The position numbers and the translations under genes were made by a program. Source: a virus. Taken from it: a DNA stretch of 64,000 nucleotides. The notes under the pieces were generated by a model. The model did not search any database. It was not told where the DNA came from and saw nothing but the letters and a program-made list of their open reading frames with translations. Within the stretch, counting starts at the first letter, position 1. Every line of letters starts with the position of its first letter. Location of the stretch: the IMG/VR virus record IMGVR_UViG_3300049489_001303, positions 32,001 to 96,000 of that record. One strand, given 5' to 3'. Shown piece by piece: positions 794 through 61,528 of the stretch.

Positions 794-1480
794 CTAATAC
801 ATTCCCCGGAACGGCACACGGTATCTCGGGTCAAATCCAGCTTGCTCCCCCTCAGGGTCGTAGCGTTTCATGGGGGGCATCTGCTGTTGGGCAGGTCCGC
901 CACGTTTCATGAGGGCTACCAGCGCTGCCAAGAGGAGAGCTCCCACCATCGCCCCACCGACGGGGGCGGCTTTAGAAGCCACGATCGCTTTCTCAGCCAG
1001 TGCTTTATAGTGCGGCTTGAGAATATTCTCACCCACCATATAGCCACCAGCACCCCCAAGCCCCAGAGCGGCAAGGTAGTGCATGGCGGAGTTGTCACTC
1101 GATAGGGCTGTCTTCCCCGGGGCCGGGGCCGCGGGAGCTTTCATAGGTGCGGATGCCGGGCTGTTTGTCTTACCCACTCCAGGCATAGGTACCACCGGTG
1201 TGGGGGTAGCCTTGGGGCGGAAGAGCGCGGAGGGAGACTGAAGACCGGCCGCAGCCACCTTGTCACCCTCTCCGGCACGTAAGGAGTCCAACTTCCTGTC
1301 GAAGTCTGAGATGGCCCGTTGATAACGGATGTCCTGCAGCTTGTCCATGATGGCGTTGCGAGCACTGTTGCCTTCAACGATCTGCTGCAGACCAGCTCCC
1401 CCCAACGTCCCACCGAGGATAAGGGCCAGTTCTTTGTCGCCAGCTGAGGCAACTTTCAAAAATGTGTGCAGGTGTGTCAT
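794..1480 (-). CDS. Putative virion internal/ejection protein (K-x-A motif, Gly-rich hydrophobic segments)
   Basis: KVAS, KVAA; hydrophobic Gly-rich helices (LGGTLGGAG, LGLGGAGG, GGAMVGALLLAALVAL). Confidence 0.55.
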   Translation of the reverse strand: MTHLHTFLKVASAGDKELALILGGTLGGAGLQQIVEGNSARNAIMDKLQDIRYQRAISDFDRKLDSLRAGEGDKVAAAGLQSPSALFRPKATPTPVVPMPGVGKTNSPASAPMKAPAAPAPGKTALSSDNSAMHYLAALGLGGAGGYMVGENILKPHYKALAEKAIVASKAAPVGGAMVGALLLAALVALMKRGGPAQQQMPPMKRYDPEGEQAGFDPRYRVPFRGMY

Positions 1481-2034
1481 TGCTTGGCCGCCTCATGCAG
1501 TGCTTTCTGGTTACTGATGTCTTCCATCAACAGGGCGCGAAGTGCTTCACGGGCACTACGCTCACGGGAGCCACTTTCTGAGCGATGCTTCAGCATGCTG
1601 AGCAGCGCACCAGCTCCCGCGCCGGCCACGGGCAGGGCCTTCATGCCAGTGGGCAGGGCCTTCAGGGTCTGTCCCACACTCTGACGGGTCAAGCCTTTGG
1701 CCAGCAGGTCCTTGATGGGCTCAAAGGCTTTTTCGCCACCATGGAGACGTGCACCCACACCCCCCACCGACCCACCGATGAAGGCATTAAAGGCGTGACT
1801 GCCGGGGTCGGAGTGTTCCCGCTCGGAGCGGATGATCTCTTCTGTTGGAATACCGGCTTCCAGCCCTTTGGACACACGCTCGTAAACGTCGATCGGAACC
1901 CACTTGTGGGAGCCGGGTAGACGTTCACGGCGATCTCCGGGAACAGGAATATTAAAAGGCATACCCGGGACATTCACCCACATGGGCAGGTCCGCGGCGT
2001 GCTTGATAAACTGATGGAGTATCGACATGATCAC
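1477..2034 (-). CDS. Putative virion internal/ejection protein
   Basis: N-terminal FIKHAA, Gly-rich segments, upstream sigma70-like promoter. Confidence 0.55.
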   Translation of the reverse strand: MIMSILHQFIKHAADLPMWVNVPGMPFNIPVPGDRRERLPGSHKWVPIDVYERVSKGLEAGIPTEEIIRSEREHSDPGSHAFNAFIGGSVGGVGARLHGGEKAFEPIKDLLAKGLTRQSVGQTLKALPTGMKALPVAGAGAGALLSMLKHRSESGSRERSAREALRALLMEDISNQKALHEAAKQ

Positions 2035-16274: not shown

Positions 16275-16341
16275 AACAAAACCTCCCTGAAACTGAGAAA
16301 CAACAGCTTAATTATAGGGGATAAAGTAGAGAAGCGTGGAA

Positions 16342-16671
16342 CTAGACTGTCGGTGGGTAAACAGGCTGGTAGGAGGGGGGCTCAGAAGAGCCGGTCATAG
16401 CCGACCCAAGAGCTGCACCGCCAATGCCGGTTCCAGCGTAGCTACCCACACGAAGAGCCTTTTTGGACTTGGGGCTCAAATCCCTGAGCCACGCCTTGAG
16501 CTTGGCCGCAGCACCGGAACCTTCAATCGGGGCAGCAGATGGAACCCCCCGAGAAACTTCCGAGCGGCCTCTTCGTGCAGCGCGGCGGGCAAAGAATTTA
16601 GGGGACACTTTCATAGCGGCCTCTTTCTTTGTCCGGAAATTCTGAAGAGCTTCCTGTGCTTGTTTAAGCAT
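16342..16671 (-). CDS. Putative internal/ejection protein
   Basis: KQA, KKEAA, basic region and Gly zipper (AGTGIGGAALG); own promoter and GGAGG SD. Confidence 0.55.
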   Translation of the reverse strand: MLKQAQEALQNFRTKKEAAMKVSPKFFARRAARRGRSEVSRGVPSAAPIEGSGAAAKLKAWLRDLSPKSKKALRVGSYAGTGIGGAALGSAMTGSSEPPSYQPVYPPTV

Positions 16672-16738
16672 GATACTTTACCTCCGAATTAGAAATCAAA
16701 CTCAGAGGAATTATAGTGTAAAGTCAGGGGGTGGAGAA

Positions 16739-17367: not shown

Positions 17368-18282
17368 TCAGGTAAAGCTGATTTCCTGGATCGCCAGACG
17401 GTTACCGATACCGAGACCGAGAGCCTCATAGCTCCAGAACTCAATAACGTCCGCTTCCTGTTTGATGTACAGAGTAGCATCCTGCAGGAGGTAGTAGTTA
17501 CCCAGGAAGTTGTTGGGAGCCTGGGGAGCAAATACCCACGCCTTGTCGGGCGAGTAGATGTCCTTTTTGATCGTCGTAACGACCGGGAGGCCCCACAGTT
17601 TCTGAGTGGACTCGATACCCTCATCGAAGTGCCGCTTCGCGATGTCGTGACCGACAGTCGTGGCCGGCAGGTCAAGAGCGTCCATGTAGCGGGCCTTCGT
17701 CATGAGCATTTTGCCCACAGGAAGGGTGCGCAGGAGCAGCTTCTTGGCCGCATTCTTGAAGGTAGAGCTTGCGAACGCCCCGGATGTAACCTGTTCGGCC
17801 ACGTTGGCAGAAGTGATCGCAGTGATGAGTTCCGCGAACTTCTTGTCTTCCTGGTCGGCCATGTCTTTAACCGAGTTGTCGGACAGGATCTTGCGAATGT
17901 CAGACGTGTAGGTCATGAGCTCGAACTTCGATTTCGTGAAGCGCTGTGACTCGATTTTACCGAAGTAAACCGAGTAACGGGGCCCACGGAACCAGGTCCG
18001 ACGACCGGTGCCCTGGAACTGTACGAACGTCGCTACAGAATCGGGCTCCTTGTCGATGATCTTCTTCGGCTGGTCGCTGTTCTCATCGCGGTCGAGCTGG
18101 TCTTCCGTGATTCCTTCCGGAACGATGATTTCGCGAACGGCCGCCGACTGACGGAGTTTCTGACGAATGAATGCCGAACTTTCGGCTTCGGCCTCTTTGA
18201 TCTGTCCTTCTTCAAGCTTACGGATGAAGTTGGAATTGATGAAGGAGGCGGAGACTTCCGGGTACTGTGTCATGTAATCCAT
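17368..18282 (-). CDS. Major capsid protein (HK97-fold)
   Basis: 304 aa, strong GGAGG SD, biased codon use, downstream of protease/scaffold genes; FIRQKLR...REII.P and C-terminal YEALGLGIGN. Confidence 0.8.
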   Translation of the reverse strand: MDYMTQYPEVSASFINSNFIRKLEEGQIKEAEAESSAFIRQKLRQSAAVREIIVPEGITEDQLDRDENSDQPKKIIDKEPDSVATFVQFQGTGRRTWFRGPRYSVYFGKIESQRFTKSKFELMTYTSDIRKILSDNSVKDMADQEDKKFAELITAITSANVAEQVTSGAFASSTFKNAAKKLLLRTLPVGKMLMTKARYMDALDLPATTVGHDIAKRHFDEGIESTQKLWGLPVVTTIKKDIYSPDKAWVFAPQAPNNFLGNYYLLQDATLYIKQEADVIEFWSYEALGLGIGNRLAIQEISFT

Positions 18283-18913: not shown

Positions 18914-19264
18914 TTAGCTCATTATGAAATCCAACAAACGAGAATCGGCATCATATCCGTTCTGAGATGCTACTTTTTCCGTTGTAGCAGGCTCTCCCAT
19001 AGACTCCACACGGTCTGAGCGATCCCCACCGGCGAGCTTCTGAAGCAGTGAAACCACTTCCGGGCCCATCTCGGCCATCTTCGTAACCGTCTGCGGATCC
19101 ACCGAACTCCCTACCATCCCCGAGAGGTTGGAGGCTATCTTCTGTGCGGCAGCATTCTGCTGAGCGGTAGCGATCTGATATGCAGCGGCCTCTGAGGACT
19201 CAATGTGAGCCGCAGTCTTCTCCAGAAGTTCAGCTGCTTGAATCAATAAGTCGTAGTTTTGCAT
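18914..19264 (-). CDS. Scaffold-like protein
   Basis: Helical, five K-x-A motifs, C-terminal LLDFIMS, upstream of the capsid genes. Confidence 0.55.
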   Translation of the reverse strand: MQNYDLLIQAAELLEKTAAHIESSEAAAYQIATAQQNAAAQKIASNLSGMVGSSVDPQTVTKMAEMGPEVVSLLQKLAGGDRSDRVESMGEPATTEKVASQNGYDADSRLLDFIMS

Positions 19265-19277
19265 TTGTCAGTTCTCC

Positions 19278-20051
19278 TTAAAACAAGCTTCCGCCGGTAG
19301 CATCGCCCGCGTTCAGGTCGATGGGGGGCGCATTGGTTTCGGCCACAGTCGGTGCCGGTGTCGGAACTTTCTTTTTCGGGTCGAACACCATGCCCTTTAT
19401 GGGCCTATCCTGCTTGTCCATGTACTGGTAGTAGGTCTTCTCATCTACCGGGAAGAACTTGCCACCAGGTCCAGGCAATTCAAAAGTATTCTGCGCTTCC
19501 TGCACAACCTGATCCCCGTAAACCTGACCACGGGCCTTAGCGGCCCTTTCGGCGTTCTGTTGAGCAAGAATAGGGTCAGCCTGATTACCAGTAGTCCCCG
19601 CATCGGCGCTCCGTACAGTCTCACCACGAGCCTTTGCAGCAGCAGCTTCGCGATCGATAGCAGCCAACCCCGCAGCGTCGCCACCCACCGGCACCGGGGG
19701 TGCTTGTTTGACAGGCGTTCCGGTAGTGGGATCTTTGGCGACCATGTTCGGGAGCACCGTGGGCCTCGGCTGTTTAGCCTGGGGCGGAGGTGCGGGAGCT
19801 GCCGCGGTCTGTCCCGTAGGGGCAACAGGAGCTTTCCCCGCCGTAGCAGGCGCTTGTGCGGGTGCTTGAGCAGGAGCAGCGGGCTGCTGCGCCATCTTAT
19901 CCATGACACTCGCCAGGCTGATCAAACCCTTAGCCCCGGCAAGAACCTGTGCACACTTGATAGTATGCGCATACTTCTGCTCGGCGGCTTGTTTTCGCAA
20001 GCCAGCGGCAGCTTCACGGAGTTGGGTGACCATATTATTGTTGTCAGCCAT
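19278..20051 (-). CDS. Head-associated hypothetical protein (Pro/Ala/Gln-rich)
   Basis: KQAA, KCA, KMA; internal AAKARG repeat. Confidence 0.55.
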   Translation of the reverse strand: MADNNNMVTQLREAAAGLRKQAAEQKYAHTIKCAQVLAGAKGLISLASVMDKMAQQPAAPAQAPAQAPATAGKAPVAPTGQTAAAPAPPPQAKQPRPTVLPNMVAKDPTTGTPVKQAPPVPVGGDAAGLAAIDREAAAAKARGETVRSADAGTTGNQADPILAQQNAERAAKARGQVYGDQVVQEAQNTFELPGPGGKFFPVDEKTYYQYMDKQDRPIKGMVFDPKKKVPTPAPTVAETNAPPIDLNAGDATGGSLF

Positions 20052-20268
20052 CTTTGCGCCCCATCAGATTCTTGGCAAAAGAAAGGACATCTTCGTTCGT
20101 AACATCCGGAACCGCGGATTGGCTTCTAAGAAGGTTGGCCACCTTCTGAAGCTCTTGCGCCAACGGAACGGTCATGCTCTCAGTTGCAGCTGCCTGCTTA
20201 ACCAGAGCGGAATCCGTTCCCTGGATGGCGGCTTGTACGATGGCATCTATGTTCAGTTTGCGTGACAT
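20044..20268 (-). CDS. Small head-associated protein
   Basis: VKQAA, QKVA; operon context. Confidence 0.6.
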   Translation of the reverse strand: MSRKLNIDAIVQAAIQGTDSALVKQAAATESMTVPLAQELQKVANLLRSQSAVPDVTNEDVLSFAKNLMGRKDG

Positions 20269-20274
20269 GTTATC

Positions 20275-21144
20275 TTACTGGCGATTCGGGTCGAAGAGTT
20301 GATTCAGGCCTTCACGAATAAGGGGCCGGGGAGCCGGGTTCCCTGCCATACGGGTGTCCGGCTGGGCTTTAATCGTGGCGTTTCCACCGCGGATCTGCGG
20401 AGCCTGATCCATGTTCACAGTGGCCAAGGGGCTGTTTGCAGGCAGTGGGTCGTTACCCTCATCAATACCGTTAACAACGGCTGACTGCTTCAACAGCTCA
20501 ATCATGATCTCAGTCTCAGCTGCGCCCTTCAGGAATTCTTCCTGGAGTTCACTGGCGATTTTGTCTTCAGCCTCTTTGTAGCCACTTTCGTACTCTTCAG
20601 CGAGTTTCTCGAGAACCGGCATCAGGTTTTCCTGCTGGGCGAATTTCACGAGATCCTCTGGGGAGAGAGCTTCAGAAGCAGCCGCCAGTTTCTCAGCGCC
20701 GGACTGGAGATACTCTTCGTACTCGGCCTGTTTCTGCATGTCGCTGTTAGCGGGGGCGTGGCCCTGCTCCAGGCTATCGAGATATTCCGCGGCTTTCTGA
20801 ATACCAGCTTCGATACCGGCGTTGTAGCCGATACGGGTGGCTTCTTCCACGTCGCTTTCACTGTAGCCACCAGCAGCCGAAGCTACCTTGGCCATTTCAC
20901 CTTCGTAAGAACCGAAGCGGGTGATGATAGCATCGGCCATCGCCTGACCCATCATGGAGGCATGGGCGAGCTCAGCCTGCTTCTCGGCGCCGGAGAGTTC
21001 CGCGGCGATCTTCAGGAGATCATCGACCGCGTTATTCTGCGTGGCGGGCTGAGTATTCGTTACTTGAGGTGCCGGGGCGCTCGCTGTCTTTACGCTGCCC
21101 GTGCGTTCCTGTTCAACCTGATTCAGAATAGTTTGTAAATCCAT
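20275..21144 (-). CDS. Prohead core/scaffold protein
   Basis: Acidic helical protein with about 11 K-x-A motifs; GAGAGG SD before ATG 21144. Confidence 0.6.
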   Translation of the reverse strand: MDLQTILNQVEQERTGSVKTASAPAPQVTNTQPATQNNAVDDLLKIAAELSGAEKQAELAHASMMGQAMADAIITRFGSYEGEMAKVASAAGGYSESDVEEATRIGYNAGIEAGIQKAAEYLDSLEQGHAPANSDMQKQAEYEEYLQSGAEKLAAASEALSPEDLVKFAQQENLMPVLEKLAEEYESGYKEAEDKIASELQEEFLKGAAETEIMIELLKQSAVVNGIDEGNDPLPANSPLATVNMDQAPQIRGGNATIKAQPDTRMAGNPAPRPLIREGLNQLFDPNRQ

Positions 21145-21218
21145 CTTGTTTTTCCTCTCCGTCAGAGTGTTACGCACCTAATCATAGGGTGCGAGTTATA
21201 GTTCAACAACACAAAAAA

Positions 21219-23330
21219 TCAGCCATCAACTATTATCCAACCCAGCCATTCAGCCAATTTATCAAGGTCAACTTCGGGTAGAGTTACCGCGCTGTCCGGG
21301 GTAGCTACCATCTCAGGCAGAATACTGGCGATTTTTTCTCCAGAGGCCAACTGTGAGAGTTTAACTGATGCCGTACCACCTCTAAGGCCTTGTAAGGTGC
21401 CCTCAATAGAAGGCCGCACAGCATTTTCAACACTACGCACAGCCTTCTGTACGCCTGTTCTACCCAGACCTTTATGCAGTAAAGCCGACCCACCGAGCAG
21501 GGAGATAATGGGATGGTTACTGGTGAATTCACCGGCAGTATCCATCATGCGCCGCGGCAGCGGCAGGCCCGGATGCCCTAGGGGAACACCATCATAGCTA
21601 CGACGTTTCTGGTCATATGCCAGAGCAGCCATGATGCCCAGCATCGTCATTGTAGGGATAGCCACGGGGTACTTACCCATAGTGTTGGCTACCGTATTTG
21701 CCACAGAGGACATCTTGGACAGCTCTGTGGTGATAGGCACCGGTACACCCTGGTCTGTCATGTAGTGCTTGCCCATTGTAGGACGCGCAGCATACCCTGC
21801 AGCAGCCAGGCCGGCGGCAAGCAGCGGGTGTTTGATAGGACCTACCGACATACCGCCCTTGGGCAGTGCACTACCGATCAGCTTGTAGGCGCCACCCAGT
21901 AACGCCGCTCCCCCCAACGTCTTAAGGAGGTTGGCACGAGCGATGTCATCATGAGACCTTATAGCAGCCCCACGGGTGGTAGCATAAACCTCTCCCGTAG
22001 CGGGATCTGTCAGTGTAAACTGTGTGGTCTTTCCGGGATCCTGTTTCCAATCTTCAGGAATGGCACGACGCTTGAGGTACTCATAAACACCCCCGCGTTT
22101 CTCAACGAAAGGCGTAAGGGTATCAGTCAAGTCTCCACGAACGTATTCCGGGCCGAAAGCCAGAGCGCCGGTCTTAGCTAACTGCTCCATGATCTGAGGA
22201 TGGTCCTCCAGCAGTTCAATAACTCCGGACTGGACGACTCCAGCGTTGTCGAGCATCCGCTGTGATATCTTCTGAATATGCCCCTGCTTGTAAGCGCTGA
22301 CCTTCAGGAACTCAGCAGCGCTTAACTGCATCCCCCCAACGGCCATCGCCGAAGAGACGACCTCAGGAAGGGAGTAAGAGGCGAGCTTCTGTACAGTCTC
22401 CTCGGGGAGATCCGGGGTGTTCGCCGCAATACCCTGGGCATAGGGGCGCATCTTGATAAGGTTCTGATACTCTTCGGTGGACATATTGTCCGGGATAGAG
22501 TCTACAGACACTCCACGAACGACCTTATCAATAACGGCCAGCTTCTTTGCCGCCAGTTTCTGCTGCTCCATCCCGTCGAGATACTCCCCCGCCGCGGCGC
22601 CGGAAATAACCTCGTAGGCCTGGTTGTTGGCAACCTTCTTGAGCATGAATGCTGTGGCGTCTGCTGGCCTGAACACCCAGGAGATATCAAAAAACTTGGG
22701 AGAGGGATTCAACGCAGCCACCTTCTTACCGTCGATGACTTCTTTCATCTGAAACTTGAGGTGGTTGCAGTATTGGGCGCGGGTGGGAGCCGTATTCCCA
22801 CAAATCGTGCAGCGATCGAACGGGACCCTGGTGCCCATACTCACAGGCGGAAACTCACCAGCTGCAATGCGCTCTGCGAGGTCAGGGGCTTTAGAATTAT
22901 CCAGATCCACCACGAGTTCTACGCGGTGCATTGTAGGATTCCAGAAGGCCCTGAGAACTTTACCCACAGCTTTTTGCGGGTCTTTATTTACATGGTGCCG
23001 GAAGTTGTGCGCCGATTCAAACGACTTGTAGTGCTGCACCAGCGTCTCTTTGTCGCTGATCCAAGGGGGATTCAGGTGCGACATATAGGGGCTCTCAGGA
23101 AACCCATCGCCATTGCGGTTCTCACCGTAAAACTCCCACGACCCCAACGCCAGAACGTAGACAATACTGTGGCCTGGGATGGGGGTGATAGTCTTGAAAT
23201 AGTCGTTGGCCACGCTGGCATGTTTGGTGAACTGCTCATAGCACGGCTTACCATTGGCCCAGAGAACTACGGGCTGGATGGAAGCTTCCCCGGTAGGGAA
23301 GTAGGGATCTATTTCGACTATCTTATGCAT
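21219..23330 (-). CDS. Prohead (capsid maturation) serine protease with C-terminal hydrophobic extension
   Basis: N.NGD.F, H.N (His), VSMG (Ser), C..C/C.H Zn site, FFDISWV..PAD: HK97/herpes-type head protease pattern. Confidence 0.8.
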   Translation of the reverse strand: MHKIVEIDPYFPTGEASIQPVVLWANGKPCYEQFTKHASVANDYFKTITPIPGHSIVYVLALGSWEFYGENRNGDGFPESPYMSHLNPPWISDKETLVQHYKSFESAHNFRHHVNKDPQKAVGKVLRAFWNPTMHRVELVVDLDNSKAPDLAERIAAGEFPPVSMGTRVPFDRCTICGNTAPTRAQYCNHLKFQMKEVIDGKKVAALNPSPKFFDISWVFRPADATAFMLKKVANNQAYEVISGAAAGEYLDGMEQQKLAAKKLAVIDKVVRGVSVDSIPDNMSTEEYQNLIKMRPYAQGIAANTPDLPEETVQKLASYSLPEVVSSAMAVGGMQLSAAEFLKVSAYKQGHIQKISQRMLDNAGVVQSGVIELLEDHPQIMEQLAKTGALAFGPEYVRGDLTDTLTPFVEKRGGVYEYLKRRAIPEDWKQDPGKTTQFTLTDPATGEVYATTRGAAIRSHDDIARANLLKTLGGAALLGGAYKLIGSALPKGGMSVGPIKHPLLAAGLAAAGYAARPTMGKHYMTDQGVPVPITTELSKMSSVANTVANTMGKYPVAIPTMTMLGIMAALAYDQKRRSYDGVPLGHPGLPLPRRMMDTAGEFTSNHPIISLLGGSALLHKGLGRTGVQKAVRSVENAVRPSIEGTLQGLRGGTASVKLSQLASGEKIASILPEMVATPDSAVTLPEVDLDKLAEWLGWIIVDG

Positions 23331-23343
23331 CTATCGCCTCTTC

Positions 23344-23736
23344 CTATTTGCCACTGAAGTCGATGGGCGGCGGTGTGTATCCTGGAAAAGAATTACTGAA
23401 AGGGGGCGCCATGCGATTCGTGGAGTCCTTCTGGCCCTTCTGCTTATTCGCGGCATCTGGCGCCGGTGCTGGAGCCGGAGCCGGAACCGGAACTGGAGCT
23501 GTAGCCGCCGCTTTCTGCAACTGATGCAGAGCGATCAGGCCATCGCCGATACCCTTCCAGCGTTCCTGCCGCTCTGCGACTTTCGTGCACAGGTAGGCAG
23601 TGACGTTCTCCAGGGTGAGCTCTTCACCAACCAGATGCTCGGCCAGCTTGTGGGTGCCATAGGTGGCTACGGCAACCTTGATGCTGTCGGGCATATAGGC
23701 CATCATGATTCTGTCGAGTTCCTGTTCGTTAACCAT
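23344..23736 (-). CDS. Head-associated hypothetical protein
   Basis: Four K-x-A motifs, PA repeat. Confidence 0.6.
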   Translation of the reverse strand: MVNEQELDRIMMAYMPDSIKVAVATYGTHKLAEHLVGEELTLENVTAYLCTKVAERQERWKGIGDGLIALHQLQKAAATAPVPVPAPAPAPAPDAANKQKGQKDSTNRMAPPFSNSFPGYTPPPIDFSGK

Positions 23737-23741
23737 TGCCG

Positions 23742-24416
23742 TTACCTCCAGCTTCCGCCGCCGTGAGCCAGCGCTTTTTTAATGGCCGTCTCAGCAGTAG
23801 CCAGGCCTTCAATTGTTCTGTAGTCGATCGCGCCACCCATCATAATAGCGTTCCTCAGGAAAGACAACACGGCGTGTGGGTCCGTACTGAGGGTGGGCGC
23901 AAACCGGGACATCGTGGCGTAGAGCTTCTCCAGGTCGCCGGGGTGCTCTGTCTCATAGCGCTTGAGAGAGGGCTCAGTTTCCAGAAGGCGCTGGAGAATA
24001 GCCACCCGTGCTTTACGGTGTACGGTCATATCCTTGATGTTGTTGTGGGCCGCTACCATTCCACCGATGCCGGCGTTGGTAAGCTCAGCACCTACGGCGC
24101 CTGCAAAACCACCCGTGAGGCCCATGAGCATTCCACGTCCAGCAGCCTGGCCCAGACCCATTTGGGGGTTAGAATCGGTTGGACGGTGAGCAGCCTCTTT
24201 GGCCATAAGTCGGAACTCGTTAAGGGCCAGAAGATGTGCGTATTTCCCAGTATAACGTTCCATGAGTTTCTCCTCCTCATCTTTGATCTTGTCTTTAGTG
24301 CCGGACACTGAGGCTCCCACGCCGGCAACACCGGTGGCCGTTACCACTTTAGAACGCAGAGAGCTCTTTGCTCCCGCATTCCCGACACCCTTAACAGCTT
24401 TTTCCCAGATACTCAT
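23742..24416 (-). CDS. Putative internal/ejection protein with Gly zipper
   Basis: KEAA, GLTGGFAGAVG. Confidence 0.6.
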   Translation of the reverse strand: MSIWEKAVKGVGNAGAKSSLRSKVVTATGVAGVGASVSGTKDKIKDEEEKLMERYTGKYAHLLALNEFRLMAKEAAHRPTDSNPQMGLGQAAGRGMLMGLTGGFAGAVGAELTNAGIGGMVAAHNNIKDMTVHRKARVAILQRLLETEPSLKRYETEHPGDLEKLYATMSRFAPTLSTDPHAVLSFLRNAIMMGGAIDYRTIEGLATAETAIKKALAHGGGSWR

Positions 24417-25264
24417 CAGCCCACCTTCGGTGCCATTTTTACGGCATTTTCAATACCCACCGCCAACCTCTGAACAGTCTCTCTGTCGGCCCTGGCAGTC
24501 TTTACAAGATTAAGTATATCGCGGCATTCCGGATCCTGTACAGAAACATGATACTCGATAACGTGCGCCACCTTCTCCGGGTCGCCCAACAGCCCTGCGG
24601 ACATATCCATGCTGTTGTAGTGGCGCAGCATCTTCAGCTCGGGAAGCACATCTGCACCCAAAGCCGCCACGGCGTTCTTCTCGAAGTTGTCTACAGCCAT
24701 CTTGCCGACGTAAGTTACGCGCATGAGCTGTGCCGCCTTTTCCAGCTTATCTCCCCAGGCAATCTCAGCCTGACGCTGCTGATCCCGCATGATTTCACCA
24801 GCACGCTTGAACATGGCTTTGAGCTCAACCGGATGTACATCCGGACCCACAGCACGTTCCACGCCGATGTGCACCGTTTCAGAGGCGGTCTTTGTCAGTG
24901 GGGCTTGTTTCATGCTCCCGTAGTAGTCGAGGGCGCGGTCGTAGGACTCGTCAGAGGCTACCTTGCCGAGACCGGACGTGTCGGCCTGAGCCAAGCCTCC
25001 CAGTTGAGAAATGACCTGCTCGGGATCCCCGACGGTGAAATTGAACATCCTGTCCGGAGCGCCCTCCGAGGCGGCCTTACCGAACATGTTCTCGAAGACG
25101 GCCACATTGGACAGACGCACCAGTGTACGGATACCTTCGGGGTTAAGCCCGTTATGCTGGGCCAACTTGAGAGCGAGGTCATTAACGCTTTGAGCCCCAC
25201 CCGAAGAGGTGTGTGTGTTACCGATCTCCTGAGCTGCGCTTTCAAACTGTTGTCTATTCCACAT
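24416..25264 (-). CDS. Head-associated hypothetical protein
   Basis: About 9 K-x-A motifs (KVAS, KTAS, KMA). Confidence 0.65.
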   Translation of the reverse strand: MWNRQQFESAAQEIGNTHTSSGGAQSVNDLALKLAQHNGLNPEGIRTLVRLSNVAVFENMFGKAASEGAPDRMFNFTVGDPEQVISQLGGLAQADTSGLGKVASDESYDRALDYYGSMKQAPLTKTASETVHIGVERAVGPDVHPVELKAMFKRAGEIMRDQQRQAEIAWGDKLEKAAQLMRVTYVGKMAVDNFEKNAVAALGADVLPELKMLRHYNSMDMSAGLLGDPEKVAHVIEYHVSVQDPECRDILNLVKTARADRETVQRLAVGIENAVKMAPKVG

Positions 25265-25291
25265 GGCTTAACTCACTTTCAAGGCACCTTC

Positions 25292-26002
25292 TCAGTGCAT
25301 GATATCCGTTAAAGGTACTCCGAGCTCTTTCGGGTTAACTACATTCTTCCGCTGTTCGATGGCCAGGACAGCGTCCATAGAAGTGTCATTGTCGGTCTTG
25401 GCATTCCGCAGTTCCATCACGGACTTAACAGCAATAGCTCCCCACTTGAAAGCCTCTTTCGCCGCGGCGGAGTTCACAGAAGATCCACGAGCTACCATAG
25501 CCTTGGAATAAGCTGTCATTGTCCACCTGGAAAGGATCTCTTTCTCGGGGATCTCCATCACGTCATTGCCCATGGTCCAGTAATCCATCAGCACGGAAGG
25601 CCCATAGGCCAGACCCACTTCAATCTGTCGCCGGACGTCATCGGTAGCTTTGTTGGCAGCATAGTATTTGCCATACAGACGCCACTCCATCTTGTTCTTG
25701 AGCTGAGTTCTGTCCATGAACAGAGACTCAAAAACACGCAGGACTTCGATCCGTACGCCGGTGCCGTAGAGTATCTGATTAAGGGTAGCCCCGCTGAGAA
25801 AAAAAGAAACAAGGGTGTCCCTCTCATAGGGGACATGGAACAGGTAAAGGGCTTCACGGATAATATCGTCCGGCTTGGCACCGGTGATAACATCGTAAAC
25901 TTCCCGCAAGAATACCTCTTCAGGTGGCGTCTTTTCCTGAACTGCCTGTTGGACCTTTTCCCAACGCCAGTCCGGCGGTAGCGGGGCGGAAAACTTAAGC
26001 AT
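25292..26002 (-). CDS. Hypothetical protein
   Basis: 236 aa ORF coupled to the upstream gene. Confidence 0.65.
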   Translation of the reverse strand: MLKFSAPLPPDWRWEKVQQAVQEKTPPEEVFLREVYDVITGAKPDDIIREALYLFHVPYERDTLVSFFLSGATLNQILYGTGVRIEVLRVFESLFMDRTQLKNKMEWRLYGKYYAANKATDDVRRQIEVGLAYGPSVLMDYWTMGNDVMEIPEKEILSRWTMTAYSKAMVARGSSVNSAAAKEAFKWGAIAVKSVMELRNAKTDNDTSMDAVLAIEQRKNVVNPKELGVPLTDIMH

Positions 26003-28605
26003 CAGGTTGCCTGCGGCTGTTCCTCTGATGTGCTCTGTGCCGAGCTGTACTTATTCAGCTGCAGCACCAGCTCACCCATGTTTTTAAACAGGTTACGCAG
26101 CCGATCTTCCAACTGCGTGAAAGCCTCATCACCGACGTTCTCTTTGGTCTCACGCTCTTTAACCCACAGGGTGAGGAGCACACGACCCAGGTTATCCAGA
26201 GCTTTCTCAAGCTGTGGGATATAGGAAGCTGTGATGTCCTGGAACACAGGGGCGGAAGCCACCATGGCAATAGCCCCGGCATCCATAGTTCCCTGGTCCT
26301 GAAGACCTGCAGCCTGCTCCACAAACGAGGGGTTAACCTGCTGCTGAACCTGTTCCGGAGAAAGGTCGCCTTGCTCCATGAACGCCGGAGGAGGCGGCTG
26401 GGGCGGCGGAACCGGTGCGATCGCCTGTGCAGCTACCTGCGGAGACTGCTCAGCACCAGCGGGAATTTGACCGTTGGAGGCTCCCGACAAGGCCATCGAA
26501 CGCTGCTGAATGCCTTGCAGAACCTGCATCAGCGCTTGGTTCTGCTGCATTTCCATGTCCATCTTTTGCTTCATCTGCTCCATCTGAGCCTGGTTCTGCT
26601 GCTGAGTCAGTTGGTTCTGCTGAGTCAGATTCTGCAGAGCTTCCCCGATAGCAAGATCTGTCGGGGAGATGGGGGCAGGCGCTGGCGCTTGCTGTTGAGC
26701 CTGCTGAGGATCCCCACCCTGCGACCCGGGTTGATCCGGCTGTGCTTTGATAGGTGCCTCAGAACTTTGCGGGGTTTCGGCCGACAGCTTATAGAGCAGG
26801 CGACCGAGGTTGTCCATCGCTGTTTTGTCCAGGATGTAGGTGTTGGCGTGGCCATACTTCTGGGCGTTATTCAGCACTCGGGTAGAGTCATCAATAGACA
26901 GGTGGTACATTGTAGCCACCTTCTGAAGGGCTTCGCCCAGGGTGAACGCATGGCTGTGGCCATCGATCCACCACTCATTGTGTCCTGCGTGCTTCACACC
27001 AGCTACCGCGGCGCCAGCATCTTTGAAGATAGACTTGAGCCATGAGCGGAAGCGGGTGGGATCCGTGATGATCGACTTAACGAACTGCGTCATCTTCCGT
27101 TTGTATTCCCAAGCCTTCTCACCCTTGGCTCCTGGGATTTTCACGAAATGAGCATCATTGGGCAGGAACACACGGGTGCCGCCGGTCTCTGTGTGGGTGA
27201 CAACGATCTTACCCTTAAGGGCCTGATCCTCGGCACCCCGAACAAACATAGTGGGTTCCCCGTCCGCGGTTACCGTGGAGATGCCGTTGGCTTTAATCAC
27301 CTGCGATACCACAAAAGGCTCTGTACACTGCAGGCCCCGGGGAGACGGGTTGATAAAGAAGCCATAGTCCTTCGGCGCGGGGGTATCACCCTCGGTGAAG
27401 TATTTGGAGATCTTGGCTTTCAGCAGGCCATTGCTCTCACTGGGGAAGAGGGGGTCTCCAACCACTTTGTCAGACACAAAGATCTTGGCCATGTCCTTGC
27501 TGATAACCAGGAACTTCTTAGCTTTCTCTTTAGGATTGAACGGGTCCGGATTATGATAGGCTTCTACCTCCATACGCCGCTCTATGGCGCTGGGGGTCTC
27601 TACCAGCGGAACTGCCAGATAGTTCTCGGCGGGACCGTCCAAGGAGTAGATTCGGAGCCAACCGGCGCCGGGGCCCGGAGCCGAAAGACTGACTGTACCC
27701 TCCACCTCTACTGCGATCTTATCCAGACCGACACGGGTGTCTTTAATGGCCAGACCGTACTGCCGGATCGTCGAGAAGGCCTCTCCGGCCATCTTTCCGA
27801 ACACTCTCTTGAGGTCTTCTTTGGAGGCTGTCTTGGTCAGTACATCCAGACTCCCATTAAGCTCCAGAACTGCCTGTTTGATCTGCCCACGCATTGTGTG
27901 TTCTGCAGCATTTCTGGTGTAACCGCTCTGCATAGCTTGAATCAAAGCGGTCTTCCCATAGCAGCTTGCCAGCTTGGAGAACATGCTGGGGTTTTTCTCG
28001 AAGGCCAGCTTGAGGCCATCCAGCGCAACTTTGGGGGCAGCACTGATAACGTCCAGGAAGTGCATCTCGGAGGCTTCGGCCCGCTTGGTCAGCTGGCGGA
28101 GCATCCGCGGAATATCCGACTCAGCATCATCAGCATAGCCTACGCGGCCATACTCTGCAGTAGGAGGCTGCACCAGATTTCGGATGTTAACGTCGGTAGC
28201 TGCACCGGGAGGCATGTCCTGACCGCGGCCCATTTCCGACAAGGACAGACGAGCCAGCTCGTTGATCCAGGCGGTGCTGAGCGGGAGGAAGATTCCCAGG
28301 TTTTTACTGTAAAGAATTTCCAGGGGTTTAAGGCGGCTATCCCCGAGAACTGCCGGGATGTAGACCGTCAAACCATCCTTCACCAGGATGAAAACACCCA
28401 GAGCATCACCCTGTGTAGCATCCATGTTCAGGATCTTAAAGGTAACGATACTGGGGGCCAGATCAGCGAAGCGGGAGAACATGACCTGATAGGCCATGTC
28501 CGAGAAACGCTGCTTGAACATCTGCTCCATGGCCTCAGGCCCTTGGGGCTGCTGCTGGTTGCCGTAAGCCTGAACTTCAGGTGACATTTGAAAAATACCG
28601 GGCAT
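26002..28605 (-). CDS. Large head-associated protein (867 aa, Q/P-rich linker)
   Basis: About 10 K-x-A motifs; GGAGG SD; promoter TTTCCA-N17-TATAAT upstream. Confidence 0.7.
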   Translation of the reverse strand: MPGIFQMSPEVQAYGNQQQPQGPEAMEQMFKQRFSDMAYQVMFSRFADLAPSIVTFKILNMDATQGDALGVFILVKDGLTVYIPAVLGDSRLKPLEILYSKNLGIFLPLSTAWINELARLSLSEMGRGQDMPPGAATDVNIRNLVQPPTAEYGRVGYADDAESDIPRMLRQLTKRAEASEMHFLDVISAAPKVALDGLKLAFEKNPSMFSKLASCYGKTALIQAMQSGYTRNAAEHTMRGQIKQAVLELNGSLDVLTKTASKEDLKRVFGKMAGEAFSTIRQYGLAIKDTRVGLDKIAVEVEGTVSLSAPGPGAGWLRIYSLDGPAENYLAVPLVETPSAIERRMEVEAYHNPDPFNPKEKAKKFLVISKDMAKIFVSDKVVGDPLFPSESNGLLKAKISKYFTEGDTPAPKDYGFFINPSPRGLQCTEPFVVSQVIKANGISTVTADGEPTMFVRGAEDQALKGKIVVTHTETGGTRVFLPNDAHFVKIPGAKGEKAWEYKRKMTQFVKSIITDPTRFRSWLKSIFKDAGAAVAGVKHAGHNEWWIDGHSHAFTLGEALQKVATMYHLSIDDSTRVLNNAQKYGHANTYILDKTAMDNLGRLLYKLSAETPQSSEAPIKAQPDQPGSQGGDPQQAQQQAPAPAPISPTDLAIGEALQNLTQQNQLTQQQNQAQMEQMKQKMDMEMQQNQALMQVLQGIQQRSMALSGASNGQIPAGAEQSPQVAAQAIAPVPPPQPPPPAFMEQGDLSPEQVQQQVNPSFVEQAAGLQDQGTMDAGAIAMVASAPVFQDITASYIPQLEKALDNLGRVLLTLWVKERETKENVGDEAFTQLEDRLRNLFKNMGELVLQLNKYSSAQSTSEEQPQAT

Positions 28606-28703
28606 ATCAATCCTCCAAGGTAATTGAATTGGGCACTAAAGCAACTTAATTATAAGGGCTTGAAAGGGAATTGGAAAGCGTTTTCGGGTGGGATAACGTA
28701 GGA

Positions 28704-29627
28704 CTACAGAAGAGCAGCGCCTACTTTGCGCAGATGCTCGCGGCCTTCAGGTGTGGAAAGCAGGTAGTCCATCGCCTGTTTGGTCCCGACATCGGCCGTC
28801 AGCTGATTGCTGACAGGAGCAGAAGCACCGGGCTCACCGCCGGGATGACCGACGATAGTTCCCACATTGGCTCCCTGCGGAATACTCTGAGCACTGTGAC
28901 CCATGCTGCTGGCAACGGCGCCCGGAATATTGATGTTGTCCGGGAGATCCTTGCGCGGGGCCGGAGCTTTACCCAGACCAGTGTCGCCACCGGAAAGAGA
29001 AGCGCCATCAGCAGCGGACTTACCGAGGTGAGCGAGGATCGCGGCAAGCTTGGACACGTTGCCCATCGGGGCATTTTCCTGTGCGCCAGGCTGAACGTCG
29101 CGTTTCATTTCCTGACCAACGGCGCCGGCTGCGGTGTTGAAGCGGGTGCTTCCCGGCTCGCCGGTGTATTCCGCCGACGGGTAGTTTTTGGCGTCGATCT
29201 CGGCCTCAGCAGTAGCACCGAGTTCAGGTTTCGGAGGGGTCTCACCCGGAACCATCGGTCCACCGGTCGAAGAAGACTCCTCAGCAACTTTCTGCATGAG
29301 GGTATAGATCGATACCGCGGCGGCATCAGCATAGTCCAGAGAAGCAGAAGCTTGTTTGAGCTCTTCTTCTTCGGGACCGATAGCCGCAGGATCGGCGTGC
29401 TCATTGATTGTCTGAGCTACTTCCACGATCTGATCCAGCACGGCTTTAGCCTGCTCAGGAGAAAGACCATCCGGAGGAGTGAGTTCAGGAACTTCTTCCT
29501 CTCCCATATTATCCGCGATGGCGTCCGCAGCTTCGTCTTCAGCAAACTTGGTCGGCCAGGAGACGATACCTTGGCGGGTCAGCTCGTGAACCATTCCACG
29601 GATATGTGCGCGTTTATAAATTCCCAT
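28704..29627 (-). CDS. Head-associated hypothetical protein
   Basis: Seven K-x-A motifs; GGAGG SD; promoter TTGGGT-N17-TATAAT. Confidence 0.7.
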   Translation of the reverse strand: MGIYKRAHIRGMVHELTRQGIVSWPTKFAEDEAADAIADNMGEEEVPELTPPDGLSPEQAKAVLDQIVEVAQTINEHADPAAIGPEEEELKQASASLDYADAAAVSIYTLMQKVAEESSSTGGPMVPGETPPKPELGATAEAEIDAKNYPSAEYTGEPGSTRFNTAAGAVGQEMKRDVQPGAQENAPMGNVSKLAAILAHLGKSAADGASLSGGDTGLGKAPAPRKDLPDNINIPGAVASSMGHSAQSIPQGANVGTIVGHPGGEPGASAPVSNQLTADVGTKQAMDYLLSTPEGREHLRKVGAALL

Positions 29628-29724
29628 AATAATCCTCCCAAGTGGGTTTCGGTGTTGCTCACCGGCTGTTACACTGAACCAATTATATAGCAGTTTGCCT
29701 GGTCACCCAAGCGCAATTCAAAAA

Positions 29725-30309
29725 TTAATATCTCACCGGGCCCGGTTCCCCACCATGCTGTTCCGGGTAAATAGTGTTACCGGCACCAGTAAGATGCCCG
29801 ACACCTGTACCAATAGCGCCACCGATCTGGCCCCCGGCCATCCCACCACCGATAGCACCCAGAAGACCCAGCGGCCCGAAGGCAGCCAAGCTGAGAGCAC
29901 TGCCACCGAGGCTCTCTCCCAGGCGCTTGGCTTTATCACCCTCGGCATCCCCGGCAATGCTGCCCGCTTCATAGGCCGGAAGGCCGTAGAAGAGCGCCTT
30001 GTTAAGGAGCCCGGGTGCTTTGAGTCCTTCACGAATCAGTCCACCTTCGCTGAGGGCTTTGCCACCTTTCAGTTCGTCATAGAACTGGCGAGGTTTACCG
30101 ATCATAAAATTCTTAACGCTGCTGCCAACATCTTTGAGTTTTACGTTTCGACCTTTTTGTATCAGGCCGCTTATGGCATCGCCTATGGCGTTGAGGCCTT
30201 TACCCATGACTGCGCTACCGCCGGGAACACGCAAGGCCACCTTCTCGATACCGTAGCGGTCATATGCTGAATCTTGCCCCAGTTTGTAGAACATCTCAGT
30301 AACGGCCAT
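29725..30309 (-). CDS. Putative ejection protein with glycine zipper
   Basis: Start revised to 30309 (MAVTEMFYKLG..EKVA); C-terminal LGAIGGGMAGGQIGGAIGTGVG. Confidence 0.65.
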   Translation of the reverse strand: MAVTEMFYKLGQDSAYDRYGIEKVALRVPGGSAVMGKGLNAIGDAISGLIQKGRNVKLKDVGSSVKNFMIGKPRQFYDELKGGKALSEGGLIREGLKAPGLLNKALFYGLPAYEAGSIAGDAEGDKAKRLGESLGGSALSLAAFGPLGLLGAIGGGMAGGQIGGAIGTGVGHLTGAGNTIYPEQHGGEPGPVRY

Positions 30310-42793: not shown

Positions 42794-43234
42794 ATGCAGA
42801 TAGCACTTACCCTACAGGAGTTAGCTCAGATCCTGGAAGCTCATTGGGGAATTGAAGTACAGCCCGAGAACCTAACACTGTCTCCGGACGCCGGGGAAAT
42901 TGTCATCAAAGATGCGTCGTTCAAGATGTTGTTGCAGGGGGCGGATAAGCCTGCAACTCCTGCTGCCAGTCGCAGTAAGGCCGCCTTGCCCCCCAGAGAG
43001 CTTCTGGTCGCTCCTGCCCCGACAGTAGCTACCACAGACGATGACGATGATTTTGGTGAGGATGAAGAGAACACGCCTTTGACTATGGAAGATATTCTGA
43101 ACATAAGCAAAACGGCAATGGTTAACAAGAAGGTGCTGACGCATCCCGAGATTTCTCGGGCACTACGTAACAGCTATGAAACCGACGAACCGCCAGAAAT
43201 GGACGAAGCCGAGTTAGCGGCTAACAGGAGATAA
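42794..43234 (+). CDS. Hypothetical acidic protein
   Basis: GAGGAGG SD, 146 aa. Confidence 0.65.
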   Translation: MQIALTLQELAQILEAHWGIEVQPENLTLSPDAGEIVIKDASFKMLLQGADKPATPAASRSKAALPPRELLVAPAPTVATTDDDDDFGEDEENTPLTMEDILNISKTAMVNKKVLTHPEISRALRNSYETDEPPEMDEAELAANRR

Positions 43235-59781: not shown

Positions 59782-60536
59782 TCGACGGAAGTCAGTCTAC
59801 TCACCTCAGCAGCCATGTGCTGTGCCCTCAAATTAACGTACAGATAGCAAGACGCCAATTGTGCTAACTGAACGTCCAAAGCGTCCTCTCCGAAGCGTCG
59901 TTCGGAGAGGGCTTTCTTATCCAGATGTGCCCAACTCTTTTTTACCTCTCGGGCAAAATCTCGGTTCTCTTCCGGGAGCATATCCAGGAGGGCTTCCTCG
60001 GCCGACTCCAGGCTTCTGGGGGGTGTCACATAGCCTGCCCGGAGAAGGCAGACAGCGATGTACTGCTGAACGTCCTCATCGACCTCTGGCCGAGCCTCAC
60101 TGTCCGGGTCCATACCTCGCAGCAGAATAGCTTCGTACATTGCCCAAGACATCTGCGCAGGGTGGCATTCCAGAAGGCATTCAGGATCGAACATCTCCCC
60201 ACACAGGGACTTAACTCCGCGCTGAAACACCAGATTATCCCAGAAGAATGCCGGGTTACGGATGATAGAAATGGCTGCCATGATCCTGTTGCGGTCTTCC
60301 AGCGACAAGTCGAGCACGTGGTCTCTCAACAGTGTCATCCACAGTGTTTCAGGTTCCCAATAGAGAAAGTCTACACCGTAAAGAGCCCGCAAGGCCATGA
60401 TTAAGGCAGTGGCTGTGGAGTCATCGGACGTTCGAAGAACTTCGACAGCTTGCCCGTTGGCTGACGCCAGTTTACATATCTCAGGGGCAGCGGTTGGCAT
60501 CCACTCAGTTATGCTGGCGAGATCCTCTTCAATCAT
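59778..60536 (-). CDS. Hypothetical protein (probably virion)
   Basis: 252 aa, coupled to 60533..61528; KLAS. Confidence 0.65.
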   Translation of the reverse strand: MIEEDLASITEWMPTAAPEICKLASANGQAVEVLRTSDDSTATALIMALRALYGVDFLYWEPETLWMTLLRDHVLDLSLEDRNRIMAAISIIRNPAFFWDNLVFQRGVKSLCGEMFDPECLLECHPAQMSWAMYEAILLRGMDPDSEARPEVDEDVQQYIAVCLLRAGYVTPPRSLESAEEALLDMLPEENRDFAREVKKSWAHLDKKALSERRFGEDALDVQLAQLASCYLYVNLRAQHMAAEVSRLTSVD

Positions 60537-61528
60537 TTGCTGTAGGCTGCCAGTTGGCGTTCCAGGGTAGCTTTCATATCCGCGGGGAGCGTTGGGAGGA
60601 TCTGCTCGAGAGTCGCCAGGTCCACATGACCATTCGGGGCAATCTCCTTCGCAATGTCTTCTCCCAGAGCGTCCTGCCAGAAGGACAGTGGCAGACCCAT
60701 GAGAAGTGTTTTATTCTGCAGAGCACCCGCGGCCTTTGTGAACTGGGACGAGAACGCCGCCGTGTTGAACACCGTGCGGATGGGATCGTACAGCTTCTTG
60801 TCATAGAAGCCTTCCAGCCCCGCCTGTTTGTCCAGCACATCGATGAGCTTGGCCAGCTTGATCTGCTCTGAGCGGTCCATCAAGTAGGGCTGCACGCCGT
60901 TGACATCTTCAGCCAGCTTGGCAAACACCGGGGCGAGGGGGGAAGCAACCTTGATAGCAGCAACCTCACGCGCACGGATGCGATCGCGCAGAACCTGGGT
61001 GTCTGTGATTGTAAATCCAGCAAGTTTTTGGGTATCAGGCTGTAGCTCGACACCATAATGTTCGGCTATCTTCAGGAGGTTATAGCCAGCCTCGGTGCGG
61101 TCCTCAACCGTCATCTCAGCATACTTGTAGTGGTACGCCCCCTCGACCTCTCTGACATCCGCGGCAGATTTGACGGCAAAGCGCCTCTTCTCCGGGAGGA
61201 GGTAGTCCTCATGAGCTGCAACTTTGACCTGCTCGGACAACGCCGGAATATCGTACAGCTCTACGGCGTCGTTGAGTGTCTGCCTGACGTGGCGGGGAAG
61301 CTCTGAGGCCACTTTGCTATAGCCATAGGAGAGCGCTGTATGCTCCCGATTGTGAATGGGGAACATGCGCTTTTCCGGCCATGCAAATGCTTCTTTGGGG
61401 AGTCCTGCGAAGTCCTCGGGCGCCATACTGGCGGTCTTACACATCTCACGAATCTCGGGAAAACGATCAACTACTACGTGCAAATAGGCGTAACCCGGAT
61501 CTTTTGTCTGGTCTACTAACATAGTCAC
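60533..61528 (-). CDS. Head-associated hypothetical protein
   Basis: About 11 K-x-A motifs; duplicated PEKR.F module; promoter TTGCTT-N17-TATAAT; likely start ATG 61522. Confidence 0.65.
   Translation of the reverse strand: MTMLVDQTKDPGYAYLHVVVDRFPEIREMCKTASMAPEDFAGLPKEAFAWPEKRMFPIHNREHTALSYGYSKVASELPRHVRQTLNDAVELYDIPALSEQVKVAAHEDYLLPEKRRFAVKSAADVREVEGAYHYKYAEMTVEDRTEAGYNLLKIAEHYGVELQPDTQKLAGFTITDTQVLRDRIRAREVAAIKVASPLAPVFAKLAEDVNGVQPYLMDRSEQIKLAKLIDVLDKQAGLEGFYDKKLYDPIRTVFNTAAFSSQFTKAAGALQNKTLLMGLPLSFWQDALGEDIAKEIAPNGHVDLATLEQILPTLPADMKATLERQLAAYSK

Follow-up and report, generated by a model that had tools for sequence, protein, structure and literature searches.

Lys-x-Ala as a predicted cleavage motif of a gp21-fold prohead protease in a lineage of mostly uncultured phages

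The prohead protease gp21 of bacteriophage T4 (MEROPS S77; PDB 5jbl) has gp22, gp67, gp68, gp23, gp24 and the internal proteins as its substrates, and the scaffold or core proteins among these are broken down to small peptides. The herpesvirus protease assemblin (MEROPS S21) cleaves (V/L/I)-x-A|S at its R and M sites, and the UL26 precursor is laid out as protease, release site, scaffold and C-terminal site. The experimentally known prohead rules of large phages (T4, phiKZ and SPN3US) all involve cutting after Glu, and the papers on these systems describe such rules only, that of phiKZ gp175 being [S/A/G]-x-E and that of SPN3US gp245 A-x-E (PMC10052503, PMC5694885). Here we analyze a 64-kb stretch of DNA (the window; bases 32001-96000 of the 170,144-bp IMG/VR virus record IMGVR_UViG_3300049489_001303, from an uncultured phage) in which the tripeptide Lys-x-Ala (K-x-A) is concentrated in a small set of proteins, most of them encoded around a predicted prohead protease gene (21219-23330, minus strand), and we propose that K-x-A is the motif recognized by this protease. 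The window encodes a multisubunit RNA polymerase, a large terminase and a minus-strand head module. Megablast of the region against phage records gave no match; at the protein level, the cultured phages most similar to this one are Salmonella phage Arash and Vibrio phages D69, D181 and D148, whose protease-like proteins are 33-36% identical to the window protease over 54-59% of its length. Pfam and PHROGs searches returned no family for any K-x-A-rich protein, and a literature search, in which subscription journals were mostly uncovered, yielded nothing relevant on a K-x-A prohead motif or on capsid cleavage in phages G and Bxz1.

The 703-residue product of 21219-23330 matched PHROG 18299 (head maturation protease, E 2.4e-11) and consists of a predicted protease domain fused to a long C-terminal region of about 460 residues (244-703) that is mostly helical. 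The gene lies in the head module, with the capsid gene (17368-18282) about 3 kb downstream and in the same order as Arash gp218-gp226. Over 700 homologues of the protein were found and 103 were used in the alignment, from which an AlphaFold model was obtained with a mean predicted local distance difference test score (pLDDT) of 74 and a confident domain at about residues 45-220. The best structural match of residues 49-222 (22665-23186, minus strand) was T4 gp21 (5jbl_B; Z 10.8, root mean square deviation 2.6 Å, 127 of 164 residues), followed by herpes proteases at Z 9.2-6 (9.2 for varicella-zoster virus), with MCE-domain entries, which are unrelated, at about Z 7. When the protease alignment was used as a profile to search PDB sequences, only a spurious helical match was obtained. 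Residues His113, Ser164 (within VSMG) and Asp215 are invariant in the 103 homologues, and in an hhalign alignment that was weak as a whole (probability 1%) Ser164 (PPVS164M) was placed on gp21 Ser140 (PGVS140S), with gp21 His85 falling three residues from His113. Both the invariant Asp215 and the nearly invariant His190 are candidates for the third residue of a triad, and the catalytic roles of His113 and Asp215 are putative. As judged from the model, 21219-23330 encodes a Ser protease domain of the T4 gp21/herpes assemblin fold.

The initial annotation had pointed to K-x-A on either side of the protease domain, in the sequences TKHAS and KKVAN, and both sites proved to be 99-100% conserved in the 103 homologues. 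The first, K36-H-A38 (23217-23225, minus strand), is a predicted N-terminal autoprocessing site in which Lys and Ala are conserved in 99% of homologues and Ser follows in 99 of 103 (Ser39 here); the model has low confidence in the stretch around this site, immediately N-terminal of the domain (block mean pLDDT approximately 55). The second, K232-V-A234 (22629-22637, minus strand), is invariant and is a predicted release site after the protease domain, within a disordered linker (residues 222-240, pLDDT<50). Further conserved sites are K258-L-A and K263-L-A265 (22536-22559, minus strand; 98-99%) and K691-L-A693, a predicted site 10 residues from the C-terminus (21252-21260, minus strand; 83%). 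In sequence pattern this succession of protease (49-222), K232-V-A release site, helical region (244-703) and a K691-L-A site resembling the herpes M site is like that of UL26, although no nested scaffold gene was seen here.

Three other features of the protease were recorded. Residues 174-196 (22743-22811) resemble a zinc-binding insertion within the protease domain, a feature that T4 gp21 is not known to have, with invariant Cys174, Cys177 and Cys188, a nearly invariant His190 and weak zinc-finger Pfam matches. At residues about 453-578 (21600-21975) there are three long, conserved, Gly/Ala-rich hydrophobic helices that resemble membrane spans, which would be odd for a head-interior protein. 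Among the matches listed, about one in seven homologues is 1057-1095 residues long and carries intein/LAGLIDADG domains (PF14528, PF14890, PF13403, PF05203), including proteins P0003, P0022, P0038, P0048, P0049 and P0053; in this lineage inteins thus recur in the prohead protease gene.

To quantify the motif, open reading frames (ORFs) were called across the window and the whole genome and K-x-A counts were compared with those in 1000-2000 within-protein residue shuffles. K-x-A was strongly over-represented in about eight of approximately 220 genes, six of which flank the protease gene, with 60533-61528 lying further off. The per-gene counts originally reported around the protease were correct or slightly low, and the enrichment survived the shuffles, with z 3.4-8.0 in six rich genes. 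When the ten neighbours of the protease were pooled there were 64 K-x-A against 21.9 expected (Poisson P=2e-13), and in the rich set K-x-A ranked first among 2000 residue pairs at spacings 0-4 (62 vs 15.7). In the few head-assembly proteins concerned, from this phage and its relatives, the motif occurs at four to six times the chance frequency. The reversed and related combinations A-x-K, K-A and R-x-A were not enriched in the rich proteins. At the motif Lys and Ala a synonymous mix of codons is used, the same as elsewhere in the same genes, which places the signal at the protein level and excludes an origin in the DNA. No homology was detectable among the rich proteins (all pairwise E-values > 0.08). 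In a scan of all genes, all pairs and four gaps no single gene passed Bonferroni correction alone (best 9e-7, threshold 1.5e-7), so that the case rests on recurrence of the motif in unrelated neighbours and across lineages. The top ranks in that scan were taken by true repeat proteins; its top outliers, which lie beyond the window at genome positions 164373-165380 (plus strand), 135307-136920 (minus) and 116887-119667 (minus), have D-x-D and D-xxx-D 57-58 times or G-xx-G 52-56 times and are probably repeat or fibre-like proteins.

These counts also delimit the signal. The motif had been described as pervasive, whereas outside the roughly eight rich genes the genome holds 223 K-x-A against 215 expected, so that the motif is concentrated. 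Of the distant genes that had been named as carriers, 60533 was upheld (13 vs 2.9) and those at 794, 1477, 10532 and 16342 had chance-level counts. Similarly, the impression that the motif is sparse in replication proteins did not hold as a depletion, since counts there are at chance.

The K-x-A-rich genes around the protease and at 60533-61528 are on the minus strand. Between the protease and capsid genes lies 20275-21177, encoding an acidic 300-residue protein that is a scaffold candidate (12 vs 2.4, z 7.1), whose homologues (26-45% identity) retain 8-15 K-x-A with motif columns 0.67 conserved against 0.21 for others, and for which the predicted fragments are 5-32 residues plus an 81-residue tail. 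The acidic 116-residue product of 18914-19264 has five lysines, each of them part of a K-x-A (5 vs 0.8, z 5.5, 2000 shuffles), and its homologues have motif columns 0.81 conserved against 0.37 for other columns. The 282-residue product of 24416-25264 (12 vs 1.9, z 8.0) is a core or scaffold candidate with an all-alpha model (pLDDT 85); 7-15 sites are retained in 28 homologues and every predicted fragment is 38 residues or shorter. Foldseek of this model against viral models gave generic helical matches only. An 867-residue head-region protein (26002-28605; 13 vs 5.6, z 3.4) has no family match and its sites are grouped at residues 174-296 and 528-594. It was considered as a possible portal and this was rejected, as it has no similarity to the 867-residue portal of mycobacteriophage Alice. 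A 307-residue acidic protein is encoded by 28704-29627 (7 vs 2.1, z 3.8), and the presence of 22 homologues in related loci identifies this as the real gene in place of the longer plus-strand ORF 28671-29690. The latter (339 residues) and the plus-strand ORF 29695-30270 (191 residues) both overlap real minus-strand genes and represent a longest-ORF trap for automatic annotation. A mild excess was observed in the 130-residue product of 23344-23736 (4 vs 1.2, p 0.02). Far from the head block, 60533-61528 encodes a 331-residue protein (13 vs 2.9, z 6.7) with no similarity to the other rich proteins.

The rich proteins have an isoelectric point of 4.4-5.7 and an Ala content of 12-15%, and those that are scaffold-like carry 12-13 sites per approximately 300 residues, a density of one per 20-25 residues. 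Computed cutting at every site reduces the products of 20275-21177, 24416-25264, 18914-19264 and 60533-61528 to pieces of mostly 40 residues or fewer. The pattern of T4 gp22/gp67/gp68-type core proteins (acidic, helical, dense in motif and adjacent to the protease) is matched here, and the acidity of the rich proteins together with the all-helical model of 24416-25264 fits scaffold/core proteins of the T4 gp22 type. No C-terminal tail common to the protease and the rich proteins was found when one was looked for.

The same scan was extended to related contigs drawn from IMG/VR and to cultured phages. Alignment of protease homologues gave 58 IMG/VR loci of 30-57% identity. Of the 400 i,i+2 pairs, K-x-A ranked first in 50 of 60 loci, some of which are near-identical, and came second in a further three. 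Despite an identity of only 25-50%, the individual homologues of the rich proteins have 5-15 sites. Conservation is 0.5-0.8 in the motif Lys and Ala columns, compared with 0.2-0.37 in the remaining columns and 0.08-0.21 at lysines that are not in the motif; some sites shift position between homologues while the total number stays. Arash (OQ632216), the closest cultured relative, has the same gene order, and its gp222 is 36% identical to the window protease over the 54% that aligns and 46% identical over the protease domain. Near gp222, K-x-A was the top pair in gp220 (10 vs 3.1) and gp225 (7 vs 1.8) and second in gp223 (8 vs 2.9). In Vibrio D69 it was the top pair in three proteins. The signal was weaker in gp90 of mycobacteriophage Alice (19 vs 8.8) and in gp19 and gp21 of Bacillus phage G. 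In Erwinia phage pEa_SNUABM_30 and Dickeya phage JA11, whose proteases are more distant (27-30% identity) and which served as negative controls, there was no K-x-A signal. Applied to the T4 head genes, the scan gave LxE as the top pair in gp22 (10 vs 3.3) and enrichment of IxE in gp68 and gp21, which ranked first when the genes were pooled; the method thus recovers the experimentally known gp21 rule. Neither LxE nor IxE was among the enriched pairs in the motif statistics of the window rich set and lineage loci, where K-x-A came first. These data demonstrate that the K-x-A signal is real, lineage-wide and at the protein level. Directly after the D69 capsid gene a 220-residue protein (L063 16747-17409) was observed with ExE 31 times against 8.6 and VxA 19 times against 3.9, and is a repeat protein.

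An extended motif was derived from 745 sites in 67 non-redundant rich proteins on other contigs. Counting from Lys, information is limited to positions -2 to +4 and reads [F/L/M]-[E/T/V]-K-[T/V/I/Q]-A-[S, small]-[D/E]. After Ala, Ser is 3.7x enriched and I, L, V and K are depleted, and at -2 F is enriched 3.6x, L 2.3x and M 2.1x. In the 67 proteins K-x-A occurs at 3.75x expectation, whereas R-x-A (0.86x), K-x-S (0.69x) and K-x-G (0.64x) do not exceed it, so that a generic effect of helices or of charge is unlikely. The small residue that follows Ala suits a cut with Ala at P1 and Ser at P1' as in assemblin, and by this analogy cleavage directly after Ala (Lys P3, Ala P1, Ser P1') is the most likely arrangement. 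The hydrophobic preference at -2 (LxK z 5.2), which mirrors the P3/P1 of the gp21 rule in T4, and the depletion of Pro directly after Lys (0.13x) would suit an enzyme cutting the same motif after Lys, as [L/F/M]-x-K|, a charge-swapped version of the T4 [L/I]-x-E| with Ala at P2'. We regard this alternative as unlikely, as Ala at +2 is the strongest partner of Lys (54% of rich-protein Lys) and a hydrophobic at -2 accompanies only 38%, while the position after Ala favours Ser and excludes bulky side chains, which suits P1' in an enzyme like assemblin.

Similarly, K-x-A might not be cleaved at all and might instead have been selected for binding, in assembly, docking or targeting, with the shell, the portal or the protease as conceivable partners. 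Such a role would accommodate the many sites in well-predicted helices of an all-alpha protein and the location of the capsid-protein site (see below) in a conserved, possibly structural segment, and cleavage is itself a prediction. Against this, the protease domain is bracketed by the motif in disordered linkers in the manner of autoprocessing sites, turnover of positions with the number kept is unusual for a structural contact, and the density of sites in unrelated proteins, one per 20-25 residues, matches degradation of the T4 gp22 type. A binding motif of this kind therefore appears improbable, to much the same extent as cleavage after Lys. A considerably less likely alternative is that the motif is cut by another enzyme, either the zinc metallopeptidase-vWA protein encoded by 61598-63172 or a host protease; 60533-61528 does adjoin the metallopeptidase-vWA gene and the genome has a DUF2201 match, but no DUF2201 match was found in Arash, D69 or Alice, all of which are K-x-A-enriched beside a gp21-fold protease, indicating that the metallopeptidase-vWA protein is not a factor common to these phages, and the motif flanks the gp21-fold domain itself. 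Finally, an artefact of composition, of local clustering of Lys and Ala, of a motif in the DNA or of internal repeats, which the Ala-rich (12-15%) character of the rich proteins might have suggested, is effectively refuted by shuffle z of 5-8, the flat A-x-K, K-A and R-x-A counts, the mixed codons, the lack of paralogy and the recurrence in distant lineages.

We consider, with somewhat better than even confidence, that K-x-A is the cleavage motif of the phage's own prohead protease, probably cut between Ala and Ser, and that by cutting there the enzyme breaks the scaffold-like proteins down into short peptides. The best explanation of the sequence data would then be a new, predicted specificity within the gp21/assemblin protease family. 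The K-x-A specificity first proposed for this enzyme is supported on computational grounds by the fold, the sites flanking the domain, the enrichment in unrelated neighbours and the T4 control. Within the prohead the protease would free itself by cutting at K36-H-A|S and K232-V-A, in the flexible linkers that flank its domain, and a cut at K691-L-A would take the final 10 residues off its own helical C-terminal part. It would chop the scaffold/core proteins encoded by 20275-21177, 24416-25264, 18914-19264 and 60533-61528 into peptides, the small ones of which could leave the shell, and would cut the products of 26002-28605 and 28704-29627 at their clustered sites.

Several observations weigh against cleavage at K-x-A by this enzyme. 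The cut sites are predictions for every member of the lineage, none being experimental, and the scissile bond is placed by analogy. Virion proteomics of Arash identified 116 virion proteins, given as coverage only (PMC10585845), and in the same paper gp222 is annotated merely as a structural protein, with no mention of a protease or of cleavage. Several sites lie inside confidently predicted helices in the 24416-25264 model, so that their accessibility is assumed. The gene at 60533-61528 is outside the head block, beside that for the metallopeptidase-vWA protein. As well as the weak hhalign alignment with gp21, the protease domain had no Pfam match at E<=0.1, Peptidase S77 included, and only weak zinc-finger matches (E 0.13-1.5), in a search where HMMER filters drop most weak ones.

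In comparison with the described systems, the window locus shares with T4 gp21 its best fold match, an aligned catalytic Ser, a gene position amid scaffold and capsid genes and a three-residue motif of the P3-x-P1 type that is packed in scaffold/core proteins, flanks the protease and ends the N-terminal leaders of cargo proteins, cleavage here being predicted. It differs in having K-x-A and not [L/I]-x-E, with no Glu rule visible, in fusion of the protease to the further C-terminal residues, in a sequence too dissimilar for Pfam S77 and in the Cys174/Cys177/Cys188/His190 cluster of the window domain. With herpes assemblin/UL26 it has in common the fold (Z 6-9), a predicted P1 Ala and a preference for Ser at P1', but Lys and not a hydrophobic residue would occupy P3, and there are many copies of the motif in several proteins as opposed to two sites. 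Like phiKZ and SPN3US this is a large phage with a multisubunit RNA polymerase and with many head proteins bearing a short motif, several copies per propeptide, although processing is predicted here and K-x-A has no acidic P1.

Beyond the scaffold-like proteins, the motif is present in the major capsid protein (17368-18282, minus strand) as K29-E-A31 (18190-18198, minus strand), a predicted propeptide cut found in 34 of 34 capsid homologues. The Arash and Vibrio D69 capsid proteins have the same N-terminal K-E-A, which in Arash gp226 is K27-E-A29. The capsid assignment derives from a weak match to PHROG 2522 (E 0.002), with 80% identical homologues in related loci. About 31 residues would probably be removed from the capsid protein, although K29-E-A31 lies in a conserved segment and the evidence for a propeptide cut is therefore suggestive only.

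It had also been proposed that K-x-A predicts the proteome of the virion interior. This was not sustained for the bare tripeptide, which is at chance in all other genes and whose presence therefore predicts nothing; near N-termini genome-wide (first 25 residues) there was only a weak excess (30 vs 23.5, p about 0.1). What is informative is a high site density or a match to the extended motif near the N-terminus. With a matrix trained on other contigs only, the mean site score was +0.99 bits in rich genes, -1.57 in other genes and -2.13 in shuffles, and sites of at least 3 bits in non-rich genes were about four times as frequent as in shuffles, with N-terminal ones scoring best. Examples in N-terminal leaders are K9-V-A11 of gene 794-1480 (site at 1448-1456, minus strand; 5.1 bits, the highest outside the rich genes) and K11-H-A13 of gene 1477-2034 (site at 1996-2004, minus strand; 4.4 bits, the third highest), and short leaders of this kind would be removed from some cargo proteins. 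An M-[I/L]-K-[T/Q]-A start, with K-x-A at residues 3-5, was observed in three minus-strand proteins (window 16342-16671, genome 154000-154890 and genome 166103-167149) and represents either a minimal leader or chance; in the first case greedy ORF calling wrongly favoured the overlapping plus-strand ORF 16336-16692. The sequence MWTKEA[S/C]DQ[S/C] is present in two ORFs beyond the window, at residue 22 in the first (genome 161792-162274, minus strand) and residue 116 in the second (genome 163463-164200, minus strand), both with a high matrix score, which suggests a common leader with mis-called starts or fused ORFs. A weak further candidate is the 146-residue acidic protein encoded by 42794-43234 (plus strand; 4 vs 0.9, p 0.008).

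Taken across the lineage, we put at about even the chance that in a large, mostly uncultured group of phages (hundreds of members, including Arash and the Vibrio phages, with a weaker signal in Bacillus phage G and the Bixzunavirus mycobacteriophages) a gp21-fold capsid protease of UL26-like build has moved from cutting after Glu to cutting at Lys-x-Ala|Ser. The rule is directly testable in the cultured relatives Arash and Vibrio phage D69. If true, a second prohead rule would show how specificity evolves in an ancient phage/herpes enzyme family, and this protease lineage would connect phage gp21 with herpes assemblin, in specificity as well as in architecture. Bacterial immune sensors of the cyclic oligonucleotide-based antiphage signaling system (CBASS) are triggered when a phage prohead protease cleaves a bait loop (PMC12991175), and such sensors would need a different bait for K-x-A phages. 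If true, the motif would also provide a sequence rule by which scaffold, core and leader-bearing cargo proteins may be recognized in hundreds of otherwise unannotatable phage genomes.

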